From a virus (Duplodnaviria; Heunggongvirae; Uroviricota; Caudoviricetes): DNA of 31,179 bases. Both the position numbers and the translations under genes were made by a program. The DNA is taken from IMG/VR virus record IMGVR_UViG_2579779052_000007. The stretch is one strand, 5' to 3'. Of this stretch, positions 5,283 through 30,479 are shown in pieces (position 1 is the first letter of the stretch; each line of letters starts with the position of its first letter). The notes under the pieces are model-generated. The model was not told where the DNA came from. It ran no database searches and saw only the letters and a program-made list of their open reading frames with translations.

Positions 5283-5519
5283 TTTTATGGATCACCTTTC
5301 TGATTGATTTCATATTGGCGAGGTGACGTGAGTTAAGTAGAATGGCTGCGGGTGCTTGAGGCTATCTGTCTCAGGCATGAACACTGAAAGGCAGATAGAG
5401 AAAAGCCCCAGTTAACATTTCGCGTCCTGCAAGACGCTTAACATTAATCTGAGGCCCAATCTATGTCTCACAAATGTAGGTTAGCCTCTTACGTGCCGAA
5501 AGGCAAGGGGAAGCAGGCT

Positions 5520-5675
5520 ATGAAGCAGCAAAAGGCGATGTTAATCGCCCTGATCGTCATCTGTTTAACCGTCATAGTGACGGCACTGGTAACGAGGAAA
5601 GACCTCTGCGAGGTACGACTCCGAACCGGCCAGACGGAGGTCGCTGTCTTCACAGCTTACGAACCTGAGGAGTAA
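5520..5675 (+). CDS. hokD: Hok/Gef-family type I toxin (HokD/RelF-like)
   Basis: 51-aa translation MKQQKAMLIALIVICLTVIVTALVTRKDLCEVRLRTGQTEVAVFTAYEPEE matches the Hok/Gef signature; an in-frame upstream start at 5463 gives a mok-like leader ORF. Confidence 0.75.
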   Translation: MKQQKAMLIALIVICLTVIVTALVTRKDLCEVRLRTGQTEVAVFTAYEPEE

Positions 5676-7172: not shown

Positions 7173-7538
7173 ATGACTGAACGCATAGAATTTGTTTTGC
7201 CTTACCCGCCAACGGTGAACACTTACTGGCGACGTCGTGGCAGCACATATTTTGTATCAAAAGTCGGTGAGCGTTATCGCCGTGATGTGGCGCTTATTGT
7301 TCGCCAGCAGCAACTGAAATTAAACCTGTCCGGAAGGCCGGCAATAGAAATTATTGCAGAGCCACCGGATAAGCGTCGTCGTGACCTGGACAATATCCTG
7401 AAGGCACCACTGGATGTACTGACGCATGCGGGGCTGCTCATAGACGACGAGCAGTTTGATGAAATTAATATTGTGCGCGGTCAGCTTGTTCCTGGTGGGC
7501 GGTTGGGGATAAAAATCACAGAACTGGAGTACGCATGA
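7173..7538 (+). CDS. rusA: Holliday junction resolvase RusA
   Basis: 121 aa with RusA-like motifs (RRRDLDN, catalytic Asp region, GGRL); positioned just before the Q-like gene. Confidence 0.8.
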   Translation: MTERIEFVLPYPPTVNTYWRRRGSTYFVSKVGERYRRDVALIVRQQQLKLNLSGRPAIEIIAEPPDKRRRDLDNILKAPLDVLTHAGLLIDDEQFDEINIVRGQLVPGGRLGIKITELEYA

Positions 7539-8224
7539 ATAACCAGTATTTACAGTTTGTTCGTGAGCAACTCATGATTGCCACCGCCGATTTGAGTGGA
7601 TCAACAAAAGGGCAGCTTGAGGCCTGGCAGGAGAATGCCATGTTTGATACAGGGCGTTACAGGCGTAAAAAAATCCGGTACCGCGATGAAGTGACTGGAA
7701 AAATGATAACGCGGGATAATCCACCAATCCCGGGAAAGCAATCGCTGGCGAAGGGGGTGTCAATTCCTCTCGTCAGTCCGGTTGAGTTTTCGACATCATC
7801 GTGGCGGCGGGCTGTTCTGTCTCTTGAAGAACATCATAAAGCCTGGTTGTTGTGGTGTTACAGCGGGAGTATTTGTTGGGAATATCAGATCGCGATAACG
7901 CAGTGGGTGTGGAATGAATTTAAAACCCGGTACGGCACCAGAAAAATTGCAGGGAAAACGCAGGAGCGCGTGAAGAAGTTGATCTGGCTGGCGGCACAGG
8001 ATGTCAGAGGATGGATTACCGGGTGTGAGGTCTACCAGAGACAGGAGCTTGCCAGACTGTGTGGAGTTAAGCCTGATAACTGGAGCCATAATTATGCGAA
8101 CTACTGGCGTGAGATGTGCGATATTTTTAAGAGTCTCGATAGAGAATCTGTGATTTGCACCGTGAAAATAAGAGCGCAACAAAAAGCGACTTTTTCACGA
8201 CGAGATATTGCAAAAGTCAATTAA
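7535..8224 (+). CDS. Putative late antiterminator Q-like protein
   Basis: 229-aa ORF overlapping the rusA stop (ATGA); position after rusA and before a short terminated leader; not lambda-Q-like by eye, so family unconfirmed. Confidence 0.45.
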   Translation: MNNQYLQFVREQLMIATADLSGSTKGQLEAWQENAMFDTGRYRRKKIRYRDEVTGKMITRDNPPIPGKQSLAKGVSIPLVSPVEFSTSSWRRAVLSLEEHHKAWLLWCYSGSICWEYQIAITQWVWNEFKTRYGTRKIAGKTQERVKKLIWLAAQDVRGWITGCEVYQRQELARLCGVKPDNWSHNYANYWREMCDIFKSLDRESVICTVKIRAQQKATFSRRDIAKVN

Positions 8225-8292
8225 ATAGCGTACGTTTCGTATAAATCTGATATTTTGCCGATTTTGTACGCGATGGCAAAGTAAGAAAAAAA

Positions 8293-8315
8293 CTGCCGTC
8301 AGGCGGTTTTTTTTT
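8293..8315 (+). terminator. Rho-independent terminator about 70 nt after Q (tR'-like)
   Basis: CTGCC-GTCA-GGCGG hairpin followed by T9. Confidence 0.45.
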
Positions 8316-8785: not shown

Positions 8786-9835
8786 ATGCTTAATACTGTA
8801 AAAATATCCAGTTGTGAGTTAATCAACGCCGACTGCCTGGAATTTATCCGGTCGTTACCCGAAAATTCTGTTGACCTGATAGTCACGGACCCGCCGTACT
8901 TTAAAGTGAAGCCTGAGGGCTGGGATAACCAGTGGAAGGGCGACGATGATTACCTGAAGTGGCTGGACCAGTGTCTGGCGCAGTTCTGGCGGGTGCTGAA
9001 ACCTGTCGGAAGTCTTTACCTGTTCTGTGGTCATCGCCTGGCATCTGATATCGAAATCATGATGCGTGAACGCTTCAGTGTGCTGAACCATATTATCTGG
9101 GCGAAGCCGTCCGGACGCTGGAACGGATGCAACAAGGAAAGCCTGCGGGCGTATTTCCCCGCCACAGAGCGCATTCTGTTCGCGGAACATTATCAGGGGC
9201 CGTATCGTCCGAAAGATGCCGGGTATGCGGCGAAGGGCAGTGCACTGAAACAGCATGTGATGGCCCCGCTGATTTCTTACTTTCGTGATGCGCGCGCTGC
9301 CCTGGGGATAACGGCAAAACAGATTGCAGATGCCACAGGAAAGAAAAACATGGTGTCGCACTGGTTCAGTGCCAGTCAGTGGCAGCTACCGAACGAAAGC
9401 GATTATCTGAAATTACAGTCGCTGTTTGCCCGGGTGGCAGAAGAGAAACATCAGCGCGGTGAACTGGAAAAGCCCCACCACCAGCTGGTGGATACGTATA
9501 CGTCACTGAACCGGCAGTATGTGGAGCTGCAGAGTGAATATAAGCATCTGCGGCGGTATTTTGGTGTGACGGCGCAGGTGCCGTACACGGATGTGTGGAC
9601 ACATAAACCGGTGCAGTTCTATCCCGGGAAACATCCGTGCGAAAAACCGGCAGAAATGCTGCAGCAGATAATCAGCGCAAGCAGTCGTCCGGGTGACCTG
9701 GTTGCAGATTTTTTTATGGGCTCAGGTTCAACGGTAAAAGCGGCACTGGCGCTTGGGCGTCGTGCGATTGGCGTTGAACTGGAGACCGGACGTTTTGAGC
9801 AGACAGTCAGGGAAGTTCAGGATTTAATCGTTTGA
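8786..9835 (+). CDS. Orphan DNA methyltransferase (N6-adenine/N4-cytosine family, DPPY motif)
   Basis: DPPY catalytic motif near the N-terminus (VTDPPYF) and a C-terminal AdoMet-binding-like FFMGSGST; no adjacent restriction endonuclease. Confidence 0.8.
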   Translation: MLNTVKISSCELINADCLEFIRSLPENSVDLIVTDPPYFKVKPEGWDNQWKGDDDYLKWLDQCLAQFWRVLKPVGSLYLFCGHRLASDIEIMMRERFSVLNHIIWAKPSGRWNGCNKESLRAYFPATERILFAEHYQGPYRPKDAGYAAKGSALKQHVMAPLISYFRDARAALGITAKQIADATGKKNMVSHWFSASQWQLPNESDYLKLQSLFARVAEEKHQRGELEKPHHQLVDTYTSLNRQYVELQSEYKHLRRYFGVTAQVPYTDVWTHKPVQFYPGKHPCEKPAEMLQQIISASSRPGDLVADFFMGSGSTVKAALALGRRAIGVELETGRFEQTVREVQDLIV

Positions 9836-9884: not shown

Positions 9885-9960
9885 GGCCCTTTAGCTCAGT
9901 GGTGAGAGCGAGCGACTCATAATCGCCAGGTCGCTGGTTCAAATCCAGCAAGGGCCACCA
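9885..9960 (+). tRNA. ileZ: tRNA-Ile2 (anticodon CAU, lysidine type)
   Basis: 76 nt ending in CCA; anticodon loop CTCATAA; near-identical by eye to the remembered E. coli tRNA-Ile2. Confidence 0.8.
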
Positions 9961-9967
9961 TCACATA

Positions 9968-10044
9968 CCGCCATTAGCTCATCAGGAAAGAGCGCCAGCT
10001 TTCGAAGCTGGTTGCGCGGAGTTCGGGTCCCCGAAGGCGGTCCA
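9968..10044 (+). tRNA. argN: tRNA-Arg (anticodon UCG)
   Basis: 77 nt with CCA; D-arm AGCTCATCAGG...GAGC; anticodon loop TTTCGAA between a CCAGC/GCTGG stem. Confidence 0.65.
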
Positions 10045-10057
10045 TTATCTGTATCCT

Positions 10058-10134
10058 GCGTTGTTAGCTCAGCCGGACAGAGCAATTGCCTTCTAAGCAA
10101 TCGGTCACTGGTTCGAATCCAGTACAACGCGCCA
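10058..10134 (+). tRNA. argO: tRNA-Arg (anticodon UCU)
   Basis: 77 nt with CCA; anticodon loop CTTCTAA; T-loop GGTTCGAATCC; acceptor stem GCGTTGT/ACAACGC. Confidence 0.8.
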
Positions 10135-10149
10135 CACTTATTTTCCCTG

Positions 10150-10172
10150 GCTCGCTTTTGCGGGCTTTTTTT
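10150..10172 (+). terminator. Rho-independent terminator after the tRNA cluster
   Basis: GCTCGC-TTTT-GCGGGC hairpin followed by T7. Confidence 0.5.
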
Positions 10173-10178
10173 AAATGT

Positions 10179-10392
10179 CTCACAATTCAGGCGGTTGACT
10201 GTTGTCTGGTTTGCGGGGAGTTTGTTAAAAGAAACTGGCATGGTGAATCCCCCTGTGCGGAGGGGCAATCAGCGAGTAGGTATATGGGATAATCGCGGAT
10301 TCAGGTGCTGGTACTGAATTCACCGGGAGGCACCCAGCACCATGCAATGGCACATAGCGCCACTCTCCAGCCCCTCTCCGGAGGGGCTTTTC
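10179..10392 (+). ncRNA. Candidate small RNA / late-promoter-terminator unit, copy 1
   Basis: Conserved CTCACAATTCAG box, TTGACT at 10195-10200, flanking inverted repeat GCATGGTG (10238-10245) / CACCATGC (10338-10345), terminator CCCCTC-TCCG-GAGGGG plus T-run at 10371-10392; no convincing ORF. Confidence 0.35.
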
Positions 10393-10646
10393 TGTGCCGG
10401 ATACATCACAGTTTCTGGAACCTTAGGTACTACAGTATCAGTCAGGGTGCTATATTTTCAGATGTGATGAAAGCCTGTCAGCAGGCAGGGCGTATCGGAA
10501 ATGACCCAGTAGAGAAAACGTTGACTCAGATACCGGTGCTGAGTTACCGGGAAACCGGCATCACATGACCGCTATCCTTCCAGGCCCATCCGCTCCGGTG
10601 GGCCTTTTTACTGCAGAAAACAGGTTCCCCGTTAAATGCTATGTTG

Positions 10647-10880
10647 CTCACAATTCAGTAAGTTGACAGTTGCCTGTCAGACTGGGCATTTGTTAAAAAA
10701 ATTTCGCATGGTGAATCCCCCTGAGCGGAGGGGCGACTGGTGACGGTATAATCTCTGATTATCAAAACGAGAATGACGCGGGTTTAGTGGCACCGGGCTG
10801 AACTCACCGGGAGGCACCCGGCACCATGTGCATGATGATACAGATACGCGGCTTTAGCCCCTCTCCGGAGGGGTTTTCTT
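10647..10880 (+). ncRNA. Candidate small RNA / late-promoter-terminator unit, copy 2 (paralogue of 10179-10392)
   Basis: Same architecture: CTCACAATTCAG, TTGACA at 10663-10668, GCATGGTG (10706-10713) / CACCATG (10822-10828), TATAAT at 10747-10752, terminator at 10858-10880. Confidence 0.35.
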
Positions 10881-11108
10881 GTGGGCAAAAAAAGCCCGCG
10901 CTGGGAGACGCGGGCGGCAAGGAATAAACAATAAAACGTGAAGTAATATTTCAGCTGGCGAATAATATCCGACAGTAATCACTCTGCGCAATAGCGCGGC
11001 CTTTTTCGTATTGCGGGCTGTTGTCTCTCTTCTGCCATTGTCCTGTAACTTCCGGACTTCAGCCCGCTCCTCATTTTACTCACAATATTATCCCGGCCGG
11101 GAGGATTC

Positions 11109-12962
11109 ATGGCATTTAAACACTATGATGTTGTCAGGGCGGCGTCGCCGTCAGATCTTGCGGAAAAGCTGACACATAAACTGAAAGAGGGCTGGCAGCC
11201 GTTTGGTAGTCCGGTGGCCATAACCCCTTATACCCTGATGCAGGCGATTGCAGCAGAAGGTGATGTGGTCGTCAGTGGTGCAACTGAGCCGGAGTGGTAC
11301 TACGTCATCGTACTGGCCGGGCAGTCCAATGCCATGGCTTACGGTGAAGGGCTTCCGCTTCCGGATTCATACGATGCGCCCCATCCGCGCATTAAGCAAC
11401 TGGCCCGTCGTAACACAGTGACTCCCGGTGGTGAAGTATGCGTATTTAACGACATCATTCCTGCTGACCATTGTCTGCATGATGTTCAGGATATGAGTAC
11501 GATTAACCATCCCCGGGCTGACCTGAGCAAAGGGCAGTACGGCTGTGTCGGACAGGGCTTACATATTGCCAAAAAACTGCTTCCGTATATCCCTAATAAT
11601 GCGGGGATCCTGCTGGTACCATGCTGTCGTGGTGGTTCGGCATTCACCCAGGGCGCGGAGGGGACATTCAGTGCGGACACGGGGGCCAGCCAGGATTCGG
11701 CACGCTGGGGTGTGGGTAAACCGTTATATCAGGATCTGCTTTTCCGCACGAAGGCAGCATTGCAGAAAAACCCGAAAAACGTTTTGCTGGCGATATGCTG
11801 GATGCAGGGGGAATTCGATATGACGAATGCCAGTTACGCCCAGCAGCCAGCAGCATTTCTTGCAATGGTACAGCAGTTCCGTGCTGACCTTACCGGGCTG
11901 GCGGCGCAGTGCCATGGCGGCAGTGCTGCAGTTGTACCGTGGATTTGTGGCGACACGACGTATTACTGGCAAAACACATACGGCACACAGTATGACTCCG
12001 TCTACGGCGCGTACAAAAACAGGGAGAGCGACAACGTTTTCTTTGTGCCGTTCATGACCGACGGTAACGGCAACAACACGCCCACCAACTTACCGGCAGA
12101 AGACCCGGATATTGCTGATGCAGGTTATTACGGCGCGCAATCCCGTAGTAATGGTAATTGGGTATCGTCAAATCGTCCGACACATTTCAGTTCATGGGCG
12201 CGCAGGGGCATTATTTCGGATCGCCTGGCAACCGCTATTCTGAACGCAGTTGGTCGAACCAGCGCCTTCATCAGCGGTACCGCACCGGAGATTAAACCCT
12301 CGCCCGGCGGCGACACTCCATCGGGGCCGTCTGATGGTGACACATCCGTTCGTACAGTCTCCCTGCTGCCGACAGCCGGAGAGGCTGCTGCGCAGGGCTG
12401 GACCATCACCGGCGGCAGTGTTGCGCTGGAAGATGGTGTGTTTAAGGTTACCAAGCAGAGCAATAAAACCTGGTCCCTGATGCATCCGGTGGATGACGCA
12501 GTCTCCCTGCTGACACGGGGTGGCAGACTGAGCTGTAAGTTTCGACTGTCAGGCGCACTGACCAACAACCAGTTCGGTCTGGGAATTTATCTGTATACCG
12601 ATGTAGCGTTACCTGACGTCGTGGCGATGACCGGGACTGGTAACCCGTTCCTGATGTCGTTCTTCACCCAGACCACAGACGGCAAACTGAATCTGATGCA
12701 TCACAAGAAAGCAGGAAACACAAAGTTGGGCGAGTTCGGGAATTACAGTAACGACTGGCAGACGCTGGAGCTGGTGTTCACCGCCAGCAGTGCCACGGTT
12801 ACTCCGAAACTGAATGGAGTGGCTGGCCCGGCATTCCAGGTCATAAAAGACAGTCTGACACTGGGGCTGAATGCACTGACGCTGACGGATATTACCAAAA
12901 ATGCAACGTATGGCGTTGAGATAGAAAGTCTGGTGCTGGAAATAAATAGTCCTGCAGCGTAA
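11109..12962 (+). CDS. nanS-p: NanS-p-type sialate O-acetylesterase (SGNH/SASA domain with C-terminal carbohydrate-binding-like region)
   Basis: 617 aa; GGAGG RBS; VIVLAGQSNAMAY motif of the SGNH/SASA esterase family; sits downstream of the phage tRNA cluster as the esterase gene does in Stx phages. Confidence 0.75.
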   Translation: MAFKHYDVVRAASPSDLAEKLTHKLKEGWQPFGSPVAITPYTLMQAIAAEGDVVVSGATEPEWYYVIVLAGQSNAMAYGEGLPLPDSYDAPHPRIKQLARRNTVTPGGEVCVFNDIIPADHCLHDVQDMSTINHPRADLSKGQYGCVGQGLHIAKKLLPYIPNNAGILLVPCCRGGSAFTQGAEGTFSADTGASQDSARWGVGKPLYQDLLFRTKAALQKNPKNVLLAICWMQGEFDMTNASYAQQPAAFLAMVQQFRADLTGLAAQCHGGSAAVVPWICGDTTYYWQNTYGTQYDSVYGAYKNRESDNVFFVPFMTDGNGNNTPTNLPAEDPDIADAGYYGAQSRSNGNWVSSNRPTHFSSWARRGIISDRLATAILNAVGRTSAFISGTAPEIKPSPGGDTPSGPSDGDTSVRTVSLLPTAGEAAAQGWTITGGSVALEDGVFKVTKQSNKTWSLMHPVDDAVSLLTRGGRLSCKFRLSGALTNNQFGLGIYLYTDVALPDVVAMTGTGNPFLMSFFTQTTDGKLNLMHHKKAGNTKLGEFGNYSNDWQTLELVFTASSATVTPKLNGVAGPAFQVIKDSLTLGLNALTLTDITKNATYGVEIESLVLEINSPAA

Positions 12963-12985
12963 GGAAGAACAGGAGAGCAAAACAG

Positions 12986-13453
12986 ATGCTTAAGACAAAC
13001 AGCCTCCGGAAGGGCATGATTCATGGGTGTCGCTGGTGTCAGGCCAACCCGGAAAAATTCACCATTTTCGTGGAGAGCGGCAACATTGAAACGACCGGAG
13101 AAACGCCCTCGTTTGTTTACCGCTATCAGATGGTGATGTTTGTCATGGATTACGCCGGGGAGCTGGACGACCTCACGCTGCCGCTACTGGCGTGGTTATC
13201 CGAAAATCAGCCGCAATTGTTGCTTAATCCGGAGCGTAATCAGGACATCAAATTCTCCGCCGTTATCAATGACGATGACAGCGCCGATCTCCTGTTTACG
13301 CTCCCTCTGCGGGAACGCGTTCGCATCACGCGCAGCAGTCAGGGGGCACCGCAGGCAGAACACCTGCAGGAGCCAAAACCCCGTCTGCCATCTTCCGAAG
13401 GCGACTGGTCGCATGTATTCCAGGATGTGACGTGGGGTGAAAGCGATGGATAA
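12986..13453 (+). CDS. R: P2 gpR-like tail completion protein
   Basis: 155 aa, the same length as P2 R, with recognisable similarity (LLAWL.ENQP segment); precedes an S-like gene. Confidence 0.65.
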   Translation: MLKTNSLRKGMIHGCRWCQANPEKFTIFVESGNIETTGETPSFVYRYQMVMFVMDYAGELDDLTLPLLAWLSENQPQLLLNPERNQDIKFSAVINDDDSADLLFTLPLRERVRITRSSQGAPQAEHLQEPKPRLPSSEGDWSHVFQDVTWGESDG

Positions 13454-14081
13454 GGCATTCACCCGCGTGGATGAAACCTTTGAGGCTATCCGCGACAGCC
13501 TGAATCAGCAGGCCATCAATAACATCGCCAGAAAGCTGGCACAGGATTTACGCCGCGCCCAGCAGGCGCGTATCCGGTCACAGAAAGCGCCGGACGGGAC
13601 CGCGTGGACACCACGCAGACGCCGCGTAACCCGGATACAGGAGCGCATTCGCTTTATCTGGAATAACGAAGCACGCACGCTGAAAAACTGGCATCACGAC
13701 ACGGGGAAATACGGGCGAACCATTACCGGGTGGGATGAGGATAAAAACAATATCCGCACGTTTTACCGGGATGACATCGACCGCTTTCTGGAAATACGCA
13801 CCCGGCGCATCAACCAGGACAGCACAAAGCGCGTCCCCATGTTCGTAAAACTGCGCACCGCCCGCTACCTGAAAGCCCGTGCAGATGCTTCCGGTGTGAC
13901 GGTGGGTTACAGCGGCGTGGCCGCACGTATTGCCCGCGTTCATCAGTTCGGTGAGCGCGATCAGGTTGCGCCGGGCATTTTCACCGATTACCCGGTACGT
14001 GAGCTGTTGGGCATCAGTCAGGCAGATGAACGCCTGATTTATAACACGGTGCTGGGCCGGATTGCGGAGGCTGTACGGTGA
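13446..14081 (+). CDS. S: P2 gpS-like tail completion / virion morphogenesis protein
   Basis: Overlaps the R stop and the V start (GTGA); start is either ATG 13446 or GTG 13437. Confidence 0.65.
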   Translation: MDKAFTRVDETFEAIRDSLNQQAINNIARKLAQDLRRAQQARIRSQKAPDGTAWTPRRRRVTRIQERIRFIWNNEARTLKNWHHDTGKYGRTITGWDEDKNNIRTFYRDDIDRFLEIRTRRINQDSTKRVPMFVKLRTARYLKARADASGVTVGYSGVAARIARVHQFGERDQVAPGIFTDYPVRELLGISQADERLIYNTVLGRIAEAVR

Positions 14082-14659
14082 GCGCAGAACTCATGCGACT
14101 GCTGAGCAACATCATCCGCACTGGGATCATCTCTGAAGTTGATGAGAAGTCCTGGTGCGTGCGCGTTCGCAGCGGCGAACTGGAAACAGGCTGGTTGCGC
14201 TGGAACACCACGCGCGCGGGAGCCTTCAATGTGTGGCTGCCGCCATCACCCGGCGAACAGGTGGTAATTGCCTGCATTGGCGGCAACCCGGAAACCGCCA
14301 TGATAATTGGCAGCCTGTGGAGTGATGCCAATCCGGCCCCCGGCAAAAGCCTGAAAGAAATCGTGGTCAGCGCGCCGGATGGCGCGGTGTTCCGCTACGA
14401 CGCGGACGCAGGCGCACTGAGCGCCAGCGGCATGAAAACGGCCACCCTGCAGGCATCCGTCAGTGTGACACTGGACACGCCCGTCGTGGAATGCACAGAC
14501 CTTCTGAGAACGGCGACGCTTGACGTCACAAAAGGGGGAAAGATGAGCGGCAATATCACGCACAGCGGCGGCAATTTCACCTCAAACGGCATCACAGTGC
14601 ATACGCATAAACACGGTGGCGTGAAAGGTGGCAGCGATTCGACAGGAGGCCCGCAGTGA
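14078..14659 (+). CDS. V: Baseplate spike protein, P2 gpV-like
   Basis: GTG start overlapping the S stop; GGAGG RBS; glycine-rich C-terminus typical of gpV spikes. Confidence 0.8.
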   Translation: MSAELMRLLSNIIRTGIISEVDEKSWCVRVRSGELETGWLRWNTTRAGAFNVWLPPSPGEQVVIACIGGNPETAMIIGSLWSDANPAPGKSLKEIVVSAPDGAVFRYDADAGALSASGMKTATLQASVSVTLDTPVVECTDLLRTATLDVTKGGKMSGNITHSGGNFTSNGITVHTHKHGGVKGGSDSTGGPQ

Positions 14660-15006
14660 CAACCCGCTACACAGGAATGAACCCGGACGGAACGGGAAAC
14701 CTGAACGATATGGAGCATCTGAAACAGTCAGTCAGGGACATCCTGACCACCCCGCTGGCAAGCCGGGTTATGCGACGGGAATATGGCAGCCTTGTGCCCG
14801 ATTTAATTGACGAACCCATGAATAACACCACTCGTCTGCAATGCATGAGTGCTGCCGTGATTGCGCTGACACGATGGGAACCCCGCATTGCCCTGGACGC
14901 CATCGACGTTGTCTGGAAGGCAGGAGGCCGCGCCGGGGTGACGCTGTCGGGCACTGTCATGCAGACCATGCAGAATGTTGAATTAACCATCACGCTGAGG
15001 GAGTAA
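14656..15006 (+). CDS. W: Baseplate protein, P2 gpW-like (gp25 family)
   Basis: 116 aa; GTG start overlapping the V stop; AGGAGG RBS; P2 gene order. Confidence 0.8.
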   Translation: MTTRYTGMNPDGTGNLNDMEHLKQSVRDILTTPLASRVMRREYGSLVPDLIDEPMNNTTRLQCMSAAVIALTRWEPRIALDAIDVVWKAGGRAGVTLSGTVMQTMQNVELTITLRE

Positions 15007-15009
15007 ATC

Positions 15010-15906
15010 ATGCCTGCCGTTGACCTTTCCCAGTTACCGGAACCCGCCATCATCGCGGAGCCTGACTTTGAGGCAATTCTGGCTGACACAAAGGCCATGA
15101 TGATTGCGTCCTATCCTGTCGAACAGCGTGAAGCCGTCTCCGCCGCGCTGGAGCTGGAATCGGAACCCCTGAACGTTATCGCCCAGACAACAGCGTTTCG
15201 TGAAATGCTGTTACGCCAGCGGGTCAATGAGGGGGCACGCGCCTGCATGTTAAGCCACAGCGCCGGGACAGACCTGGACAACCTCGCGGGCAATATGAAC
15301 ACAAAGCGCCTGACCATCACTCCGGCAACGGATACCACCGACGCAGTGATGGAAAGTGACACCTCGCTGAGACTGCGGGCGCAGCGGGCGTACGATGGCC
15401 TGAGTGTTGCTGGCCCGTCAGGTGCATACGAGTATTTTGCCCGCAGCGCCAGCGGTCTGGTGCGTGATGCGCGGGCTATCAGTCCGTCTCCGGCAAATGT
15501 GACGGTTTCCATCCTGTCCACTGAAGGCGACGGCACAGCAACGGAGGCGTTGCTTAATACCGTTCGCGCCGTTCTGAATGCAGAGGATACCCGCCCGGTG
15601 GCCGACCGCCTGACGGTACAGAGCGCCAGAATCGTGACATGGCGGCTGAATGCAAAACTGTACTTTTACCCCGGCCCGGAATCCGAACCTATTCTGGCGG
15701 CGGCTGAATCGTCGTTCAGGAAGTGGCTGGCTGAGCAGGGGCTTATCGGTCAGGACGTGGCGTTGTCCGCCATTGCTGCCGCACTGCATGTGCACGGTGT
15801 GCAACGCGTGGAGATAATCGAACCCACACAGAATATGGCCATCAGCGACATACAGGCGGCGCGCTGTGAGTCGTTCACCATCAGCGAAGGTGGGCGCAAT
15901 GAGTAA
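15010..15906 (+). CDS. J: Baseplate assembly protein, P2 gpJ-like
   Basis: 298 aa; RBS GAGGGAG; P2 size and order. Confidence 0.85.
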   Translation: MPAVDLSQLPEPAIIAEPDFEAILADTKAMMIASYPVEQREAVSAALELESEPLNVIAQTTAFREMLLRQRVNEGARACMLSHSAGTDLDNLAGNMNTKRLTITPATDTTDAVMESDTSLRLRAQRAYDGLSVAGPSGAYEYFARSASGLVRDARAISPSPANVTVSILSTEGDGTATEALLNTVRAVLNAEDTRPVADRLTVQSARIVTWRLNAKLYFYPGPESEPILAAAESSFRKWLAEQGLIGQDVALSAIAAALHVHGVQRVEIIEPTQNMAISDIQAARCESFTISEGGRNE

Positions 15907-16429
15907 TTCACTGTTACCACCATCAGCCAGCAGTTTCATGCGTTGTGCCGAAGCTGTCGGAACGCGCATTACAGACATCCCGGTAGACCTCAACACGCTG
16001 TGGTCGCCGGACACCTGCCCGGTGCACCTGCTGCCTTATCTCGCCTGGGCATTTTCCGTTGACCGCTGGGATCGCAACTGGCCGGAAGAGACAAAACGAC
16101 AGGTGATTCGTGATGCATGGCTGATACACCGACACAAAGGGACCATCAGCGCACTGCGCAGGGCCATTGAGCCGCTGGGATACCTCATTCGCGTGTCTGA
16201 GTGGTGGGAGTTCGGCGGAGAACCGGGAACATTTACCGTTGAAGTCGGCACACTGGACAGTGGCGTGACGGAGGAAATGTATCTGGAAATGGAGCGGTTG
16301 ATTGCTGATGCCCGTCCGGTCAGCCGCCACATGACAGGGCTGAATATCATTCAGGAAATTCCGGGGGATATTTTTGCAGCGGCGGCAACTCATGACGGTG
16401 AAGTTATTACCATTTATCCGGACGATTAA
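15899..16429 (+). CDS. I: Baseplate/tail protein, P2 gpI-like
   Basis: 176 aa, the same length as P2 I; start overlaps the J stop (ATGAGTAA). Confidence 0.8.
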
Positions 16430-16431
16430 GC

Positions 16432-18564
16432 ATGAGTACCACAACACGAAAATTTAAAACCGTTATCACCGATACAGGTGCAAAAAAATTAGCTCAGGCA
16501 GCCGCGCCAGATGGTAAGCCTGTCCGCCTGACTCATATGGCCGTGGGCGACGGTGGCGGCGCGTTGCCCACACCAGACAGTAAGCAGACCCGTCTGGTGC
16601 ATGAGGTGTGGCGACACACTGTTAATCGCGTCATCCTGGACGCAACACATCAGAACCGCATTATTGCGGAGCTGGTTATTCCTCCAGAAACGGGCGGATT
16701 CTGGATCCGGGAAATTGGTGTGTTTGATGAGCACGGCGATTTAATCGCGGTGGGCAATACTGCCGAAAGTTACAAGCCAGCCGTTGCCGAAGGGTCCGGA
16801 CGTGCACAAACATTTCGCACCATTCTGACCGTATCCAGCACTGCCACTGTGGCGCTTACCGTGGATAACACCATGGTGATGGCCACAGTGGATTACGTGG
16901 ATAACAAACTGAAAGAGCATGAACAGTCACGATGTCACCCGGATGCCTCGCTGACCGCAAAAGGCTTTGTTCAACTCAGTAGCGCCACTAACAGCGATTC
17001 TGAAACGCTGGCTGCAACGCCGAAAGCGGTTAAGGTCGCGTATGATCTTGCTAACGGAAAATATACAGCGCAGGATGCCACAACAGCGCGAAAAGGCCTT
17101 GTCCAGCTTAGTAGTGCAACCAACAGTACATCTGAAACGCTGGCGGCAACATCAAATGCAGTAAAAGCTGCCTATGACAATGCTGAAAAACGTCTGCAGA
17201 AAGCTAAGAATGGTGAGGATATCTCTGATAAAGACACCTTTACGAAAAATATCGGTGCCTGCCGTGCATATAGTGCAGAGCTGAATATTGGTGGAGATAG
17301 TGAAGCATGGACAACTGCGCAGTTGATTTTTTGGCTAGAGAGTCAGGGGGCATTTAACCATCCTTACTGGATGTGCAAAGGCTCATGGGCTTATGCAAAT
17401 AATAAGGTCATTACAGATACAGGTTGCGGAAGTATTTGTCTTGCAGGTGCTGTTGTGGAAGTTATTGGCACCCGCGGCGCAATGACCATACGCATTACCA
17501 CACCGAGTACATCCAGCGGTGAAGGCATCCCTAATGCTCAATTTACTTATATTAATCATGGTGATGCTTATGCTCCTGGCTGGCGAAGGGACTATAACTC
17601 CAGGAATAAGCCAACAGCATCAGAGATCGGGGCGTTACCGTCAGATGGGACAGCAGTATCGTCAGTTAATCTGGCTTCAAAAGGTCGGCTGACCGCCCTG
17701 ACAGATAATATGCAGGGGGCCACAGGTCTGGAGTTATACGAGGCGTATAACAACGGATATCCAACAACGTATGGAAATATCATTCACCTGAAAGGGATGA
17801 CAGCCGTTGGCGAAGGCGAATTACTCATCGGCTGGAGTGGTATAAGCGGTGCTCATGCTCCGGCATTTATTCGTTCACGACGGGATACGACCGACGCAAA
17901 CTGGTCGCCGTGGGCGCAGCTTTACACCTCGGCTCATCCTCCTGAAGAGTTTTATCCAGTCGGTGCACCGATTCCGTGGCCATCAGATACCGTTCCGTCT
18001 GGTTATGCCCTGATGCAGGGGCAGACTTTTGACAAATCTGCATACCCGAAACTTGCAGTCGCTTATCCGTCAGGCGTTATTCCTGATATGCGTGGCTGGA
18101 CGATTAAGGGCAAGCCCGGCAGTGGTCGTGCCGTATTGTCTCAGGAACAGGACGGCATTAAATCGCACACCCACAGCGCCAGCGCATCCAGTACGGATTT
18201 GGGGACGAAAACCACATCGTCGTTTGATTACGGTACTAAAACGACCAGTTCATTTGATTACGGCACAAAAACTACGAATAGCGCTGGAAATCATTCACAC
18301 AATATACCTGTTGGTCACACTGGCGCGGGGAATGGTGTATCAGCCGGTTATAACGCTGCGTTAGGTACTGGTACCACGTCGAGCGCAGGCGAGCATGCTC
18401 ACAATGTATATATCGGTGCCCATAACCACACTATCGGCATTGGTGCTCATGCCCATTCTGTCATTATTGGTCCCCACGGACACACCATCACCGTTAACGC
18501 TACGGGTAACGAAGAAAACACCGTAAAAAACATCGCATTTAACTATATTGTGAGGCTTGCATAA
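16432..18564 (+). CDS. H: Tail fibre protein, P2 gpH-like
   Basis: 710 aa; conserved gpH-type N-terminus; repeat-rich, histidine-rich C-terminal receptor-binding region. Confidence 0.8.
18201..18282 (+). repeat. Tandem 30-nt coding repeats within the tail fibre gene ([10 protein letters not shown], about 2.7 copies)
   Basis: GGGGACGAAAACCACATCGTCGTTTGATTAC / GGTACTAAAACGACCAGTTCATTTGATTAC / GGCACAAAAACTACGAATAGC. Confidence 0.55.
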
Positions 18565-19142
18565 TGACATTCAGAATGAGTGAACACTCACGGACCATAA
18601 AAATTTATAATCTACTGACCGGAACCAATGAGTTTATTGGTGAAGGTGATGCATACATTCCACCTCATACAGGTCTGCCTGCAAACAGTACCGATATTGC
18701 CCCGCCAGATATTCCGGCTGGCTTCGTGGCCGTTTTCAACAGTGATGAGGCATCGTGGCATCTCGTTGAAGACCATCGGGGTAAAACGGTTTATGACGTG
18801 GCATCAGGGGACTCGTTATTTATTTCTGAACTCGGTCCATTACCGGAAAATGTTACCTGGTTGTCGCCGTATGGAGAGTATCAGAAGTGGAACGGCACAT
18901 CCTGGGTGAAAGATGCAGAAGCAGAAAAACTGTTTCGGATAAGGGAGGCGGAAGAAACAAAAAACAGCCTGATGCAGGTAGCCAGCGAGCATATTGCGCC
19001 ACTTCAGGATGCCGTAGATTTGGATATTGCAACGGAGGAAGAGGCATCGTTACTGGCTGCATGGAAGACATACCGGGTATTGTTGAATCGTGTTAATACA
19101 GCGGTAGCAGCGGATGTTGAGTGGCCAGTCGCCCCACAATAA
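18564..19142 (+). CDS. G: Tail fibre assembly protein, P2 gpG-like
   Basis: 192 aa; start overlaps the H stop (ATAATG); position immediately after the fibre gene. Confidence 0.8.
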
Positions 19143-30177: not shown

Positions 30178-30264
30178 TGGTACCCGGAGCGGGACTTGAA
30201 CCCGCACAGCGCGAACGCCGAGGGATTTTAAATCCCTTGTGTCTACCGATTCCACCATCCGGGC
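30178..30264 (-). tRNA. leuZ: tRNA-Leu (anticodon UAA)
   Basis: 87-nt class II tRNA; reverse complement GCCCGGATGGTGGAATCGGTAGACACAAGGGATTTAAAATCCC...GGTACCA. Confidence 0.85.
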
Positions 30265-30276
30265 TCGGGAAGAAAG

Positions 30277-30350
30277 TGGAGGCGCGTTCCGGAGTCGAAC
30301 CGGACTAGACGGATTTGCAATCCGCTACATAACCGCTTTGTTAACGCGCC
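30277..30350 (-). tRNA. cysT: tRNA-Cys (anticodon GCA)
   Basis: 74 nt; reverse complement GGCGCGTTAACAAAGCGGTTATGTAGCGGATTGCAAATCCGTC...CTCCA. Confidence 0.85.
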
Positions 30351-30403
30351 AAATTCTTCAGGCCTTTCAGCCAGACATCCGCTGACGCCGATGCCTTTTA
30401 AAC

Positions 30404-30479
<76 letters not shown>

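Follow-up and report, generated by a model that had tools for sequence, protein, structure and literature searches.

Three tandem STnc100-family RNA copies with a covarying, pseudoknotted 5' domain in the late region of a lambdoid prophage

Introduction

Does an eight-nucleotide inverted repeat that recurs in two related units of phage DNA reflect selection on an RNA structure, and, if it does, to which RNA does it belong and what could that RNA do? The repeat lies in IMG/VR record IMGVR_UViG_2579779052_000007, a stretch of 31,179 nucleotides, the whole of which is called the window here. An earlier note, written from the letters alone, had pointed to the repeat, to its retention in a second unit with a diverged interior and to two hairpins enclosed by it, and had argued for selection on RNA structure rather than on protein coding. 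Judged by sequence comparison, that structured-RNA reading is right: the window carries three tandem copies of the STnc100 family, an element which is already catalogued.

Genomic setting

The window is a lambdoid prophage region, in which the sRNA genes occupy the accessory-gene slot that extends from a tRNA cluster to an esterase gene (Table 1). Where a near-identical E. coli locus has holin and lysozyme genes next, the window runs directly into P2-like tail genes. This is the typical setting of STnc100, namely the late region of lambdoid prophages, between Q and the lysis genes, where tRNA genes often adjoin. Among 5426 complete E. coli genomes the tandem arrangement was found at a coverage of at least 80% in 353, and half of the genomes (2714 of 5426) match the 971-bp query over at least part of its length. 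The STnc100 region is overlapped by ORFs of 42-101 codons. In the RefSeq annotation of a near-identical genome the RNA is not annotated, and a partial antisense "hypothetical protein" pseudo-CDS lies over copy 1.

Table 1. Coordinates of the RNA copies, their predicted parts and the neighbouring features in the window.
Feature	Position	Strand	Basis or remark
sok	5350-5525		
lambda-type Q antiterminator gene (PF06323)	7535-8224
short promoter-plus-terminator leader directly after Q	8225-8310		2 kb upstream of STnc100 copies
N6 methylase	8786-9835
three tRNAs, Met/Ile-Arg-Arg	9885-10134
three sRNA genes	10200-10880	+
copy 1 predicted promoter	10202-10231	+	read from sequence
copy 1 -35-like TTGTCT	10202-07	+	18-nt spacer to TAAAAG hexamer
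copy 1 extended -10-like TGtTAAAAG	10223-31	+	ends 6 nt before P1
copy 1 structured 5' domain	10238-10345	+	Rfam match, covariation
copy 1 P1	10238-45 with 10338-45	+
copy 1 J1/2 junction AAUC	10246-49	+
copy 1 P2 hairpin	10250-65	+
copy 1 pseudoknot ATCAGCG/TGCTGGT	10268-74 with 10306-12	+
copy 1 P4	10297-304 with 10314-21	+	GGATT starts stem
copy 1 P5 hairpin	10323-37	+	one C.A mismatch
copy 1 linker, 23 nt	10346-68	+	candidate seed region, by analogy
copy 1 intrinsic terminator AGCCCCTCTCCGGAGGGGCT + TTTTCT	10369-93	+	terminator scan; stem 10369-88
copy B, diverged middle paralogue	10448-10609	+	sub-threshold Rfam match, R1, fold
copy B extended -10 TGcTATATT	10448-56	+	predicted; ends 5 nt before P1
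copy B P1 ATGTGATG/CATCACAT	10462-69 with 10559-66	+
copy B P2 GCCTG/CAGGC	10473-86	+
copy B pseudoknot TATCGG/CCGGTG	10493-98 with 10533-38	+
copy B P4	10523-29 with 10539-45	+
copy B P5 CCGG-GAAA-CCGG	10547-58	+
copy B linker	10567-81	+	candidate seed region by position, by analogy
copy B terminator	10582-609	+	terminator scan; stem 10582-605
copy 2 predicted promoter	10670-10699	+	read from sequence
copy 2 -35-like TTGCCT	10670-75	+	18-nt spacer to TAAAAA hexamer
copy 2 extended -10-like TGtTAAAAA	10691-99	+	ends 6 nt before P1
copy 2 structured 5' domain	10706-10829	+	Rfam match
copy 2 P1	10706-13 with 10822-29	+
copy 2 P2	10718-33	+
copy 2 pseudoknot CTGGTG/CACCGG	10737-42 with 10791-96	+
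copy 2 P4	10780-88 with 10797-805	+
copy 2 P5	10807-21	+
copy 2 linker, 26 nt	10830-55	+	candidate seed region by position, by analogy
copy 2 terminator AGCCCCTCTCCGGAGGGGTT + TTCTT	10856-80	+	terminator scan; stem 10856-75
minus-strand terminator	10915-10894	-	abuts copy 2 terminator
DUF1737-SASA esterase (sialate-esterase gene)	11109-12962

The inverted repeat and its family

In unit 1 (copy 1), GCATGGTG at 10238-10245 is the perfect 8-bp complement of CACCATGC at 10338-10345, as the earlier note had it, and 92 nt are enclosed. The closing helix of unit 2 (copy 2) is also real: GCATGGTG at 10706-10713 faces CACCATGT at 10822-10829 in seven Watson-Crick pairs and a terminal G.U, CACCATG occupying 10822-10828 and the eighth pair, G10706.U10829, being the wobble. 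The interior is diverged, again as described. The mean column identity of the two units is 73% in a pairwise alignment, and two long conserved blocks surround a diverged centre, which differs by substitutions and by 16 nt that are extra in unit 2.

Taken alone, the repeat carries little weight. A repeat search with an 8-nt seed returned 192 inverted pairs within 130 nt in the window, so a single 8-bp repeat is not above chance, and the identity of the stem in the two units is conservation rather than covariation, because the flanking blocks are conserved in sequence as well. The fold prediction that had been suggested was of divided help: the predicted minimum-energy folds of copies 1 and 2 include the closing stem (P1), but the folding z-scores of their domains, -1.3 and -1.95 against shuffles, are unremarkable, and the minus strand folds about equally well. 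Folding energy alone could therefore not decide, and a comparison across sequences was needed.

A scan of the window against Rfam, at the curated thresholds and then in E-value mode, identifies the element as RF02076 (STnc100), a gammaproteobacterial sRNA first listed in Salmonella. Copy 1 is matched at 10209-10399 with 128.9 bits and copy 2 at 10677-10886 with 161 bits, both over model positions 1-206, which is the whole model, and the gathering threshold of the family is 47 bits. The inverted repeat is the outer eight-pair closing stem of the RF02076 consensus structure. All consensus helices, that is, the closing stem, the three inner hairpins (CCCCU/AGGGG, GGGUUCAG/CUGAACUC and CCGGG-AGGCA-CCCGG) and the terminator, were located in copies 1 and 2. 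The consensus as printed by cmscan has two weak central 3-bp stems and no pseudoknot, whereas the covariation described below supports a pseudoknot. Other Rfam classes, ribozymes and riboswitches included, gave only chance-level hits (E >= 0.25) in an E-value search of 10100-11150, and across 12 diverse homologous loci STnc100 was the sole Rfam family matched.

The qPCR primers published for STnc_100 at its place behind stx2 have exact matches at 10239-58 and 10312-31, which reproduces their 93-bp amplicon. Unit 1 thus represents the variant known from Stx2 phages, carried here by a prophage that lacks stx. A literature text search for the conserved core sequences returned only a qPCR primer in an OMV paper.

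The description as two units proved incomplete. Units 1 and 2 are both real, but a third, diverged copy (copy B) lies between them at 10462-10566. In E-value mode RF02076 matches it at 10438-10611 with 30.1 bits (E 1.8e-4); since this is below 47 bits, copy B is called a diverged relative and not, by this criterion, a member. Our own covariance model R1, which scores copy 1 at 83.4 bits and copy 2 at 82.8 bits, matches copy B at 10462-10566 with 31.3 bits (E 1.4e-4). The sequences of its P1, P2 and P5 differ from those of copies 1 and 2, yet they still pair, and its minimum-energy fold has the same architecture with z = -3.55, none of 200 shuffles being as stable. The minimum-energy folds of the other two copies recover P1, P2 and P4 in copy 1 and P1, P2, P4 and P5 in copy 2.

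Covariation and the conserved fold

Homologues were collected from one-genome-per-species bacterial contigs with a pattern (AATCCCC, a gap of 60-90 nt, then CACCGGGAGGCACC) that leaves the stem free. The search gave at least 120 loci and 121 distinct homologue sequences; among the matches listed, nearly all loci are from Enterobacterales, including Escherichia, Salmonella, Klebsiella, Enterobacter, Pantoea, Erwinia, Rahnella and Rosenbergiella. The P1 strands abut the fixed anchors and could be compared without alignment. Among the matches listed, 75 different strand combinations occur in the 121 distinct homologues, for example GTGGTG/CACCAC, GCGGTG/CACCGC, GTGATG/CATCAC, CAGATG/CATCTG, GCTATG/CATAGC and GGAACG/CGTTCC. 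Over the inner six pairs, 98.9% of cells are paired; permuting the 3' strands among the 121 sequences lowers this to 84.4% (maximum 86.5%). In the outermost two pairs the pairing falls to 70-76% of sequences; the helix kept family-wide is therefore one of 6 bp, which the E. coli prophage subgroup extends to 8, and the idea of a closing stem maintained throughout holds for the inner part and not for the outer two pairs.

A wider alignment had been proposed as the way to look for compensatory changes, and its outcome is positive. In the MAFFT alignment A2 (121 sequences) each of the eight P1 pairs varies on both of its sides. Scored over the whole structure, covariation reaches 0.375 in this alignment; shuffles give 0.161 and slid registers, in which 40-50% of cells are paired, no more than 0.091. 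A covariance model built from A2 recovered 150 copies in 100 sources, 43 of them without a match to the search pattern, and in this set (A3) 93.2% of cells are paired, against at most 49% in slid registers. P4 is 98% paired, with double changes in four of its five pairs in A2 and in five of five in A3. P2 and P5 are mostly constant, which in the pattern-selected set results partly from the construction of the search pattern, and a few compensatory changes appear in the pattern-independent copies.

The pseudoknot emerged from the alignment and was then tested independently of it. The best complementarity between the 16 nt that follow P2 and the loop of P4 averages 6.02 nt in the 121 sequences, and 4.35 nt (maximum 4.64, 300 trials) when the loops are permuted among them. 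The strand pairs are varied (CCAGTC/GACTGG, ACTGGAT/ATCCAGT, GCTGAT/ATCGGC and AAGCCACA/TGTGGCTT, for example), and in the window itself the strands of copy 2 differ from those of copy 1, yet stay complementary. A word search of the 2026 preprint on the STnc100 family found no mention of "pseudoknot".

The conserved fold consists of P1, the AAUC junction, P2, P4 with a pseudoknot between its loop and the segment after P2, and P5, its helices and pseudoknot being carried by the covariation just described. The junction and loop bases (GAAUC, GCGG, GCG and RGCA) are near-constant from Erwinia to Escherichia, and the stems covary.

The two inner hairpins named in the earlier note did not survive the comparison. 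The strings AATCC (10246-50) and GGATT (10297-301) are present, but their pairing is not conserved: AATC is an unpaired junction, constant in 121 of 121 pattern-selected homologues and near-constant in the 43 copies outside the search pattern, and the sequence proposed to pair with it is variable; GGATT belongs to P4, where the copy 1 strand that it starts (10297-304) covaries with 10314-10321. The second hairpin, GGTGCTGG (10304-11) with CCAGCACC (10334-41), overlaps P1 and so clashes with the closing helix, and it has no counterpart in unit 2.

Could the repeat nevertheless be fortuitous, be left over from a tRNA or attachment site, or belong to a small coding gene? The 192 comparable repeats, the three tRNA genes just upstream, the overlapping ORFs and the partial antisense CDS in RefSeq give such readings some footing. 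Against them stand the covariation of P1, P4 and the pseudoknot across 121-150 homologues and the strong Rfam matches. ARAGORN finds no tRNA or tmRNA in the STnc100 region, and a tRNA, tmRNA or tRNA-derived origin was rejected on this ground. The domain lengths of the 150 copies are spread evenly modulo 3 (57/47/46), their indels are not multiples of three, and the best single reading frame is open in only 49 of 150. The even spread and the want of a frame open in most copies argue that the domain is not coding, and a protein-coding reading was rejected for either strand, neither length modulo 3 nor frame being conserved. We regard the chance, tRNA-derived and coding explanations as excluded. 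The original argument for selection on RNA structure rather than on coding is thereby upheld, on the covariation of P1, the absence of a conserved frame and the presence of the stem in the Rfam consensus.

The transcription unit

Behind all three copies there is a GC-rich hairpin followed by a T run, and the terminator scan counted 10 terminator-like sites in 1.6 kb where 2.0 were expected; the terminators, like family membership, can be regarded as shown. Linkers of 15-26 nt precede them in the three copies. Upstream, each of the three copies has a predicted extended -10-like element, separated from P1 by 5-6 nt. The hexamers of two of them (TAAAAG in copy 1 and TAAAAA in copy 2) are without the usually conserved final T, and a consensus scan missed both, the promoter of copy 1 being missed on account of its hexamer. 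With such hexamers the RNAs could instead arise by processing of a longer late RNA. Across 120 homologues there is a concentration of -10-like hexamers 0-7 nt upstream of P1 (12.3 per position, compared with 3.8 further upstream), and canonical promoters lie at the same distance from P1 in many homologues. From these and from the RNA-seq 5' end of PasD1 (described below) we infer promoters and start sites, each RNA most likely having its own promoter and beginning at the outermost base of P1 or beside it.

Two regulatory arrangements that involve the ends of the unit were considered and rejected. The first is a switch between the 3' half of P2 (GGAGGGGC) and the 5' half of the terminator (GCCCCUCUCC), since the terminators of homologues are unrelated and the pairing occurs only in the E. 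coli subgroup; no conserved alternative pairing between domain and terminator, of the kind an expression platform would need, was found among the homologues. The second is a role of the RNA as the late-promoter leader of the window prophage, because a separate short leader with promoter and terminator follows Q at 8225-8310.

Relatives and known systems

One described relative is EcOnc27/sRNA103 of Stx2 phages (EHEC Sakai Sp5, EDL933), which overlaps an STnc100 prediction 75 nt downstream of stx2B and lies upstream of esterase and lysis genes. Its flanks are those of the window, tRNAs of the ileZ-argN-argO type upstream and a nanS-p-like esterase downstream; unlike that locus, the window has no stx operon, and the slot holds three tandem copies. 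EcOnc27 is bound by Hfq (CRAC, Northern), and its overexpression raises the fimZ and espA transcripts (PMC7873438; PMC12711010). EcOnc27 variants have been reported as predictors of haemolytic uraemic syndrome (PMC12711010).

The second group of relatives is PasD1/2 of EPEC E2348/69, where STnc100 relatives interact with virulence mRNAs. PasD1/2 have many partners in Hfq RIL-seq, the chimeric fragments lying in the 3' 50 nt, and a seed, UGUGAG, has been proposed in the linker between P1 and the terminator (PMC8550237 supplement). By RNA-seq, PasD1 begins exactly with the first G of GCATGGTG, the outermost base of its P1, and the PasD RNAs are 172-173 nt long, PasD1 being 173 (PMC8550237 supplement). 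They share with the window copies the promoter layout (in PasD1, TTGACT-17-TAAAAA, 7 nt, then the G of GCATGGTG), P1 (GCATGGTG/CGCCATGC), a pseudoknot (AATGATC/GATCATT), P4, the linker and the terminator. PasD differs in being without P5, scores a sub-threshold 37.7 bits against RF02076 and adjoins a holin gene in prophage PP4, not an esterase gene. In an hfq deletion the level of PasD does not drop (log2 -0.18 and +0.55, RNA-seq), whereas PasA, PasB, PasC, FnrS and MgrR fall 4- to 100-fold (RNA-seq); Hfq-independent levels fit a self-stabilising structure. On structural grounds, PasD had already been connected with STnc100 by Zhu, Shabalina and Storz (bioRxiv 2026), who proposed a common ancestry and called the function not elucidated. 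Copy B and PasD1 are both sub-threshold relatives of STnc100. An identification of copy B as PasD was rejected, since neither the seed region of PasD nor the probe sequence of PasA occurs in the window; the linker seed UGUGAG was not found anywhere in it.

Convergent sRNA dyads (AsxR/EcOnc27 and AgvB/EcOnc06) have been described between the late promoter and the lysis genes (PMC7873438). The window has a similar feature, a minus-strand terminator (10915-10894) that abuts the terminator of copy 2, and the minus-strand element to which it belongs resembles the EPEC RIL-seq candidate E2348C_1409.E2348C_1408.IGR. A match to the AsxR or AgvB families of Rfam was not found in 10100-11150, even in E-value mode. 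Between Q and the lysis genes of lambdoid phages there are also short, promoter-proximal transcripts that end at a terminator, namely lambda 6S RNA, StxS and HK022 put, the last of which is structured and acts in cis. Unlike these, the STnc100 copies sit 2 kb beyond a separate post-Q leader, and we know of no antitermination activity or RNA polymerase contact of STnc100 copies.

What function could the RNAs perform?

The reading that we favour, with a probability of roughly 0.7, is that the locus comprises three tandem STnc100 sRNA genes whose products are trans-acting, Hfq-associated RNAs with a structured 5' domain and a seed in the linker. Each RNA would be transcribed from its own promoter, start at P1 and fold into a 5' domain of about 105-125 nt, followed by an unstructured linker of 15-26 nt and an intrinsic terminator, in total about 150-175 nt. 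From the relatives, whose linkers differ from those in the window, we infer Hfq dependence, the location of the seed and a stabilising role of the domain: the RNA would act in trans by base pairing, with the seed in the linker. Such a seed would account for linkers that vary from copy to copy next to a conserved 5' domain. In all three copies the terminator is Rho-independent and followed by a T run, the configuration of an Hfq-binding module. Helices at the 5' terminus are known to shield E. coli RNAs from the decay that RNase E and RppH carry out in dependence on the 5' end; P1 at the extreme 5' end may block such decay and would probably render the RNA stable.

Two aspects of the domain go beyond this simple picture. 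First, near-constant bases in junction and loops would be needless in a plain stabiliser, so the domain probably does something more specific and may also bind a conserved partner. Second, homologous domains occur in arrays of 3-6 per 8 kb, some of them (Pantoea arrays) only 14-35 nt apart and without terminators between them, and in a leader-like arrangement before kdgM, neither of which fits a simple stand-alone sRNA. The constant bases, the arrays and the kdgM linkage keep two other readings alive.

In one of them, which we consider unlikely, the pseudoknotted domain is itself a binding module for a protein or ligand, which it titrates or senses, and pairing by the linker is secondary or absent. 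Near-constancy of junction and loop bases where the stems covary, seen in the pattern-independent copies as well, marks a tertiary fold or a binding site; Hfq sRNAs do not usually contain a multi-helix junction with a pseudoknot, and the tightly packed arrays and the Hfq-independent abundance of PasD agree with such a module. However, no conserved protein gene accompanies the RNA, the neighbours of the homologues falling into unrelated sets (phage Q/holin/lysozyme; kdgM and pectate lyase; dcp), and we know of no partner of the STnc100 domain. In addition, the constant motifs can be exchanged or lost: copy B replaces them (P2 GCCTG/CAGGC, P5 GAAA loop) and keeps the architecture, and PasD1 has lost P5, yet retains the architecture and abundant Hfq-linked interactions. 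A sponge of the CsrA type was rejected separately, because homologues do not keep the GGA of the P2 loop (GCGG is followed by A, C or U).

The other reading, which appears improbable, makes the domain a cis-acting leader that controls terminator read-through or a downstream mRNA (esterase, lysis genes, kdgM). Its appeal comes from the gene order. Every copy in the window has a terminator followed by genes on the same strand, and among the matches listed a phage lysozyme gene lies downstream on the same strand in 22 loci, a P21-type holin gene in 16, and a Q antiterminator gene (PF03589) upstream in 12. Among the same matches, 18 loci have a kdgM porin ORF on the same strand at a median of 201 nt downstream, and where the flanks were read (L028, L038, L098, L099, L108) its start codon lies about 100 nt after the domain with a weak hairpin between. 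What a leader would be expected to conserve is missing, however: the domain has no conserved pairing with the terminator, the terminators of homologues vary freely in sequence, and several chromosomal copies have oppositely oriented genes in front of them. A constant 5'-UTR position before one regulated gene was not found among the homologues, of which only the kdgM subgroup (18 loci) is leader-like. The window prophage moreover has its own post-Q leader (8225-8310) 2 kb upstream of the copies, and the relatives accumulate as discrete RNAs of 172-173 nt. The trans-acting, Hfq-associated sRNA remains the preferred reading for the copies in the window.

Implications

To the catalogued family the present analysis adds a covariation-supported pseudoknot, a third copy in the array and evidence for a transcript start at P1, and it places the same domain both in arrays and in one chromosomal 5' leader. 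Recognition of the RNA has a practical consequence, as it prevents a false gene call of the kind seen in the antisense pseudo-CDS that RefSeq lays over copy 1. The family is also of medical relevance: EcOnc27, located behind stx2B, overlaps variants reported to predict haemolytic uraemic syndrome, and relatives interact with virulence mRNAs in EPEC.

A broader proposal, which we put forward as doubtful, is that the 5' domain is more than a stabilising cap: as a functional module it would bind a conserved partner of the cell or the phage (a protein, RNA polymerase, the ribosome or a small ligand) and would have been reused across the Enterobacterales. Reuse would then extend over stand-alone sRNAs, arrays in the late leaders of prophages and the 5' leader of the kdgM porin/pectate-lyase operon. 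The significance of the locus would rise only if the conserved domain proves to have a specific partner, and the pseudoknot, the start at P1 and the array and leader contexts are the handles with which to ask what that domain does. If the proposal is true, STnc100 would be a widespread class of structured RNA that is now filed as an ordinary Hfq sRNA.

Surroundings of the three copies

The terminator of copy 2, the last of the three tandem STnc100 sRNA genes, is adjoined by a convergent sRNA-like element on the minus strand. The 3′ part of this element, CACGUUUUAUUGUUUAUUCCUUGCCGCCCGCGUCUCCCAGCGCGGGCUUUUUUU, is very similar to the EPEC RIL-seq candidate sRNA E2348C_1409.E2348C_1408.IGR, the seed of which is CUUGCG (PMC8550237 fig. 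S5). The layout of copy 2 and its convergent neighbor is similar to that of the AsxR/EcOnc27 dyads of lambdoid prophages, in which EcOnc27 is the member of the STnc100 family; no Rfam match to AsxR or AgvB was obtained for the minus-strand element.

The motif CTCACAAT occurs three times in the window. In copies 1 and 2 it is located ~50-58 nt 5′ of P1, the stem that closes the structured 5′ domain, and the third occurrence lies immediately ahead of the start codon of the esterase gene. Similar CTCACAA motifs are found upstream of some homologues (L013, L043, L044 and L079). The motif may be a regulator site, or it may be a piece of a minus-strand promoter (GATAAT, 11092-11087). Further upstream, the short leader that follows the antiterminator gene Q is probably the late promoter with its terminator, in a StxS-like position, and is distinct from the STnc100 copies.

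In RefSeq, a partial "hypothetical protein" pseudogene is annotated antisense across copy 1 in the near-identical E. coli locus L121 (4090-4215, NZ_CP062871.1 169498-169623), equivalent to ~10229-10354 on the minus strand of the window. None of the three copies is listed as an ncRNA by RefSeq at L121, and this pseudogene is a probable false gene call that arose because the sRNA is unannotated.

Table. Features in the window and STnc100-type domains in homologous loci (L-numbers)
Feature	Location	Strand	Details
sok antitoxin RNA	5350-5525		Rfam match above threshold, 120.5 bits; hok/sok-type module, prophage early region
Leader directly 3′ of lambda-type Q gene	8225-8310		TATAAA box; terminator AAAAAAACTGCCGTCAGGCGGTTTTTTTTT
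Motif CTCACAAT	10180-10187, 10648-10655, 11079-11086		
sRNA-like element convergent to copy 2	10887-10990	minus	terminator stem 10915-10894, T run to 10887
P2-like tail genes	12963-19142		tail terminator, tail completion, baseplate V/W/J-like, tail fibre, tail-fibre assembly protein
IS009	18907-19105		Rfam match above threshold, 192.1 bits; within tail-fibre assembly gene 18564-19142
tRNA-Leu(taa), tRNA-Cys, tRNA-Gly(gcc) cluster	30178-30479	minus	
dcp-linked copy	L080 4918-5023		also nine other Enterobacter/Kosakonia loci
Domain arrays	L023 950-1988; L017 3116-4485; L058 4138-5926; L053 2065-3600; L022 6370-7001		
KdgM-linked domain variant	L038 1845-2060		also L028, L050, L098, L099, L108

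Prophage make-up

Directly after the lambdoid esterase gene the window continues with tail genes of a P2-like myovirus, and a holin/lysozyme cassette and head genes are absent from that stretch. This arrangement suggests that the prophage is mosaic or defective and that the junction falls near 12963-12985. Because the tRNA cluster resembles the chromosomal glyW-cysT-leuZ operon, the prophage may stop short of the window's right end, which would then consist of host DNA.

STnc100-type domains in other contexts

A chromosomal copy outside prophages is kept 3′ of dcp (dipeptidyl carboxypeptidase), near ydfG; it carries its own terminator as well as a TTGACC promoter. An Rfam match to STnc560 lies ~1 kb from it in L080. 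In prophage regions of Pantoea and Superficieibacter, and also on one Pantoea megaplasmid, three to six domains form an array. Some adjacent domains are just 14-35 nt apart with no terminator between them, which implies multi-domain transcripts. A domain variant of 125 nt in Klebsiella, Raoultella and related genera precedes a KdgM-family porin gene, ~100 nt 5′ of its start codon; this porin gene is followed by a periplasmic pectate lyase gene and has a divergent LuxR-type regulator gene upstream. Here the domain looks more like a 5′ leader than a stand-alone sRNA.
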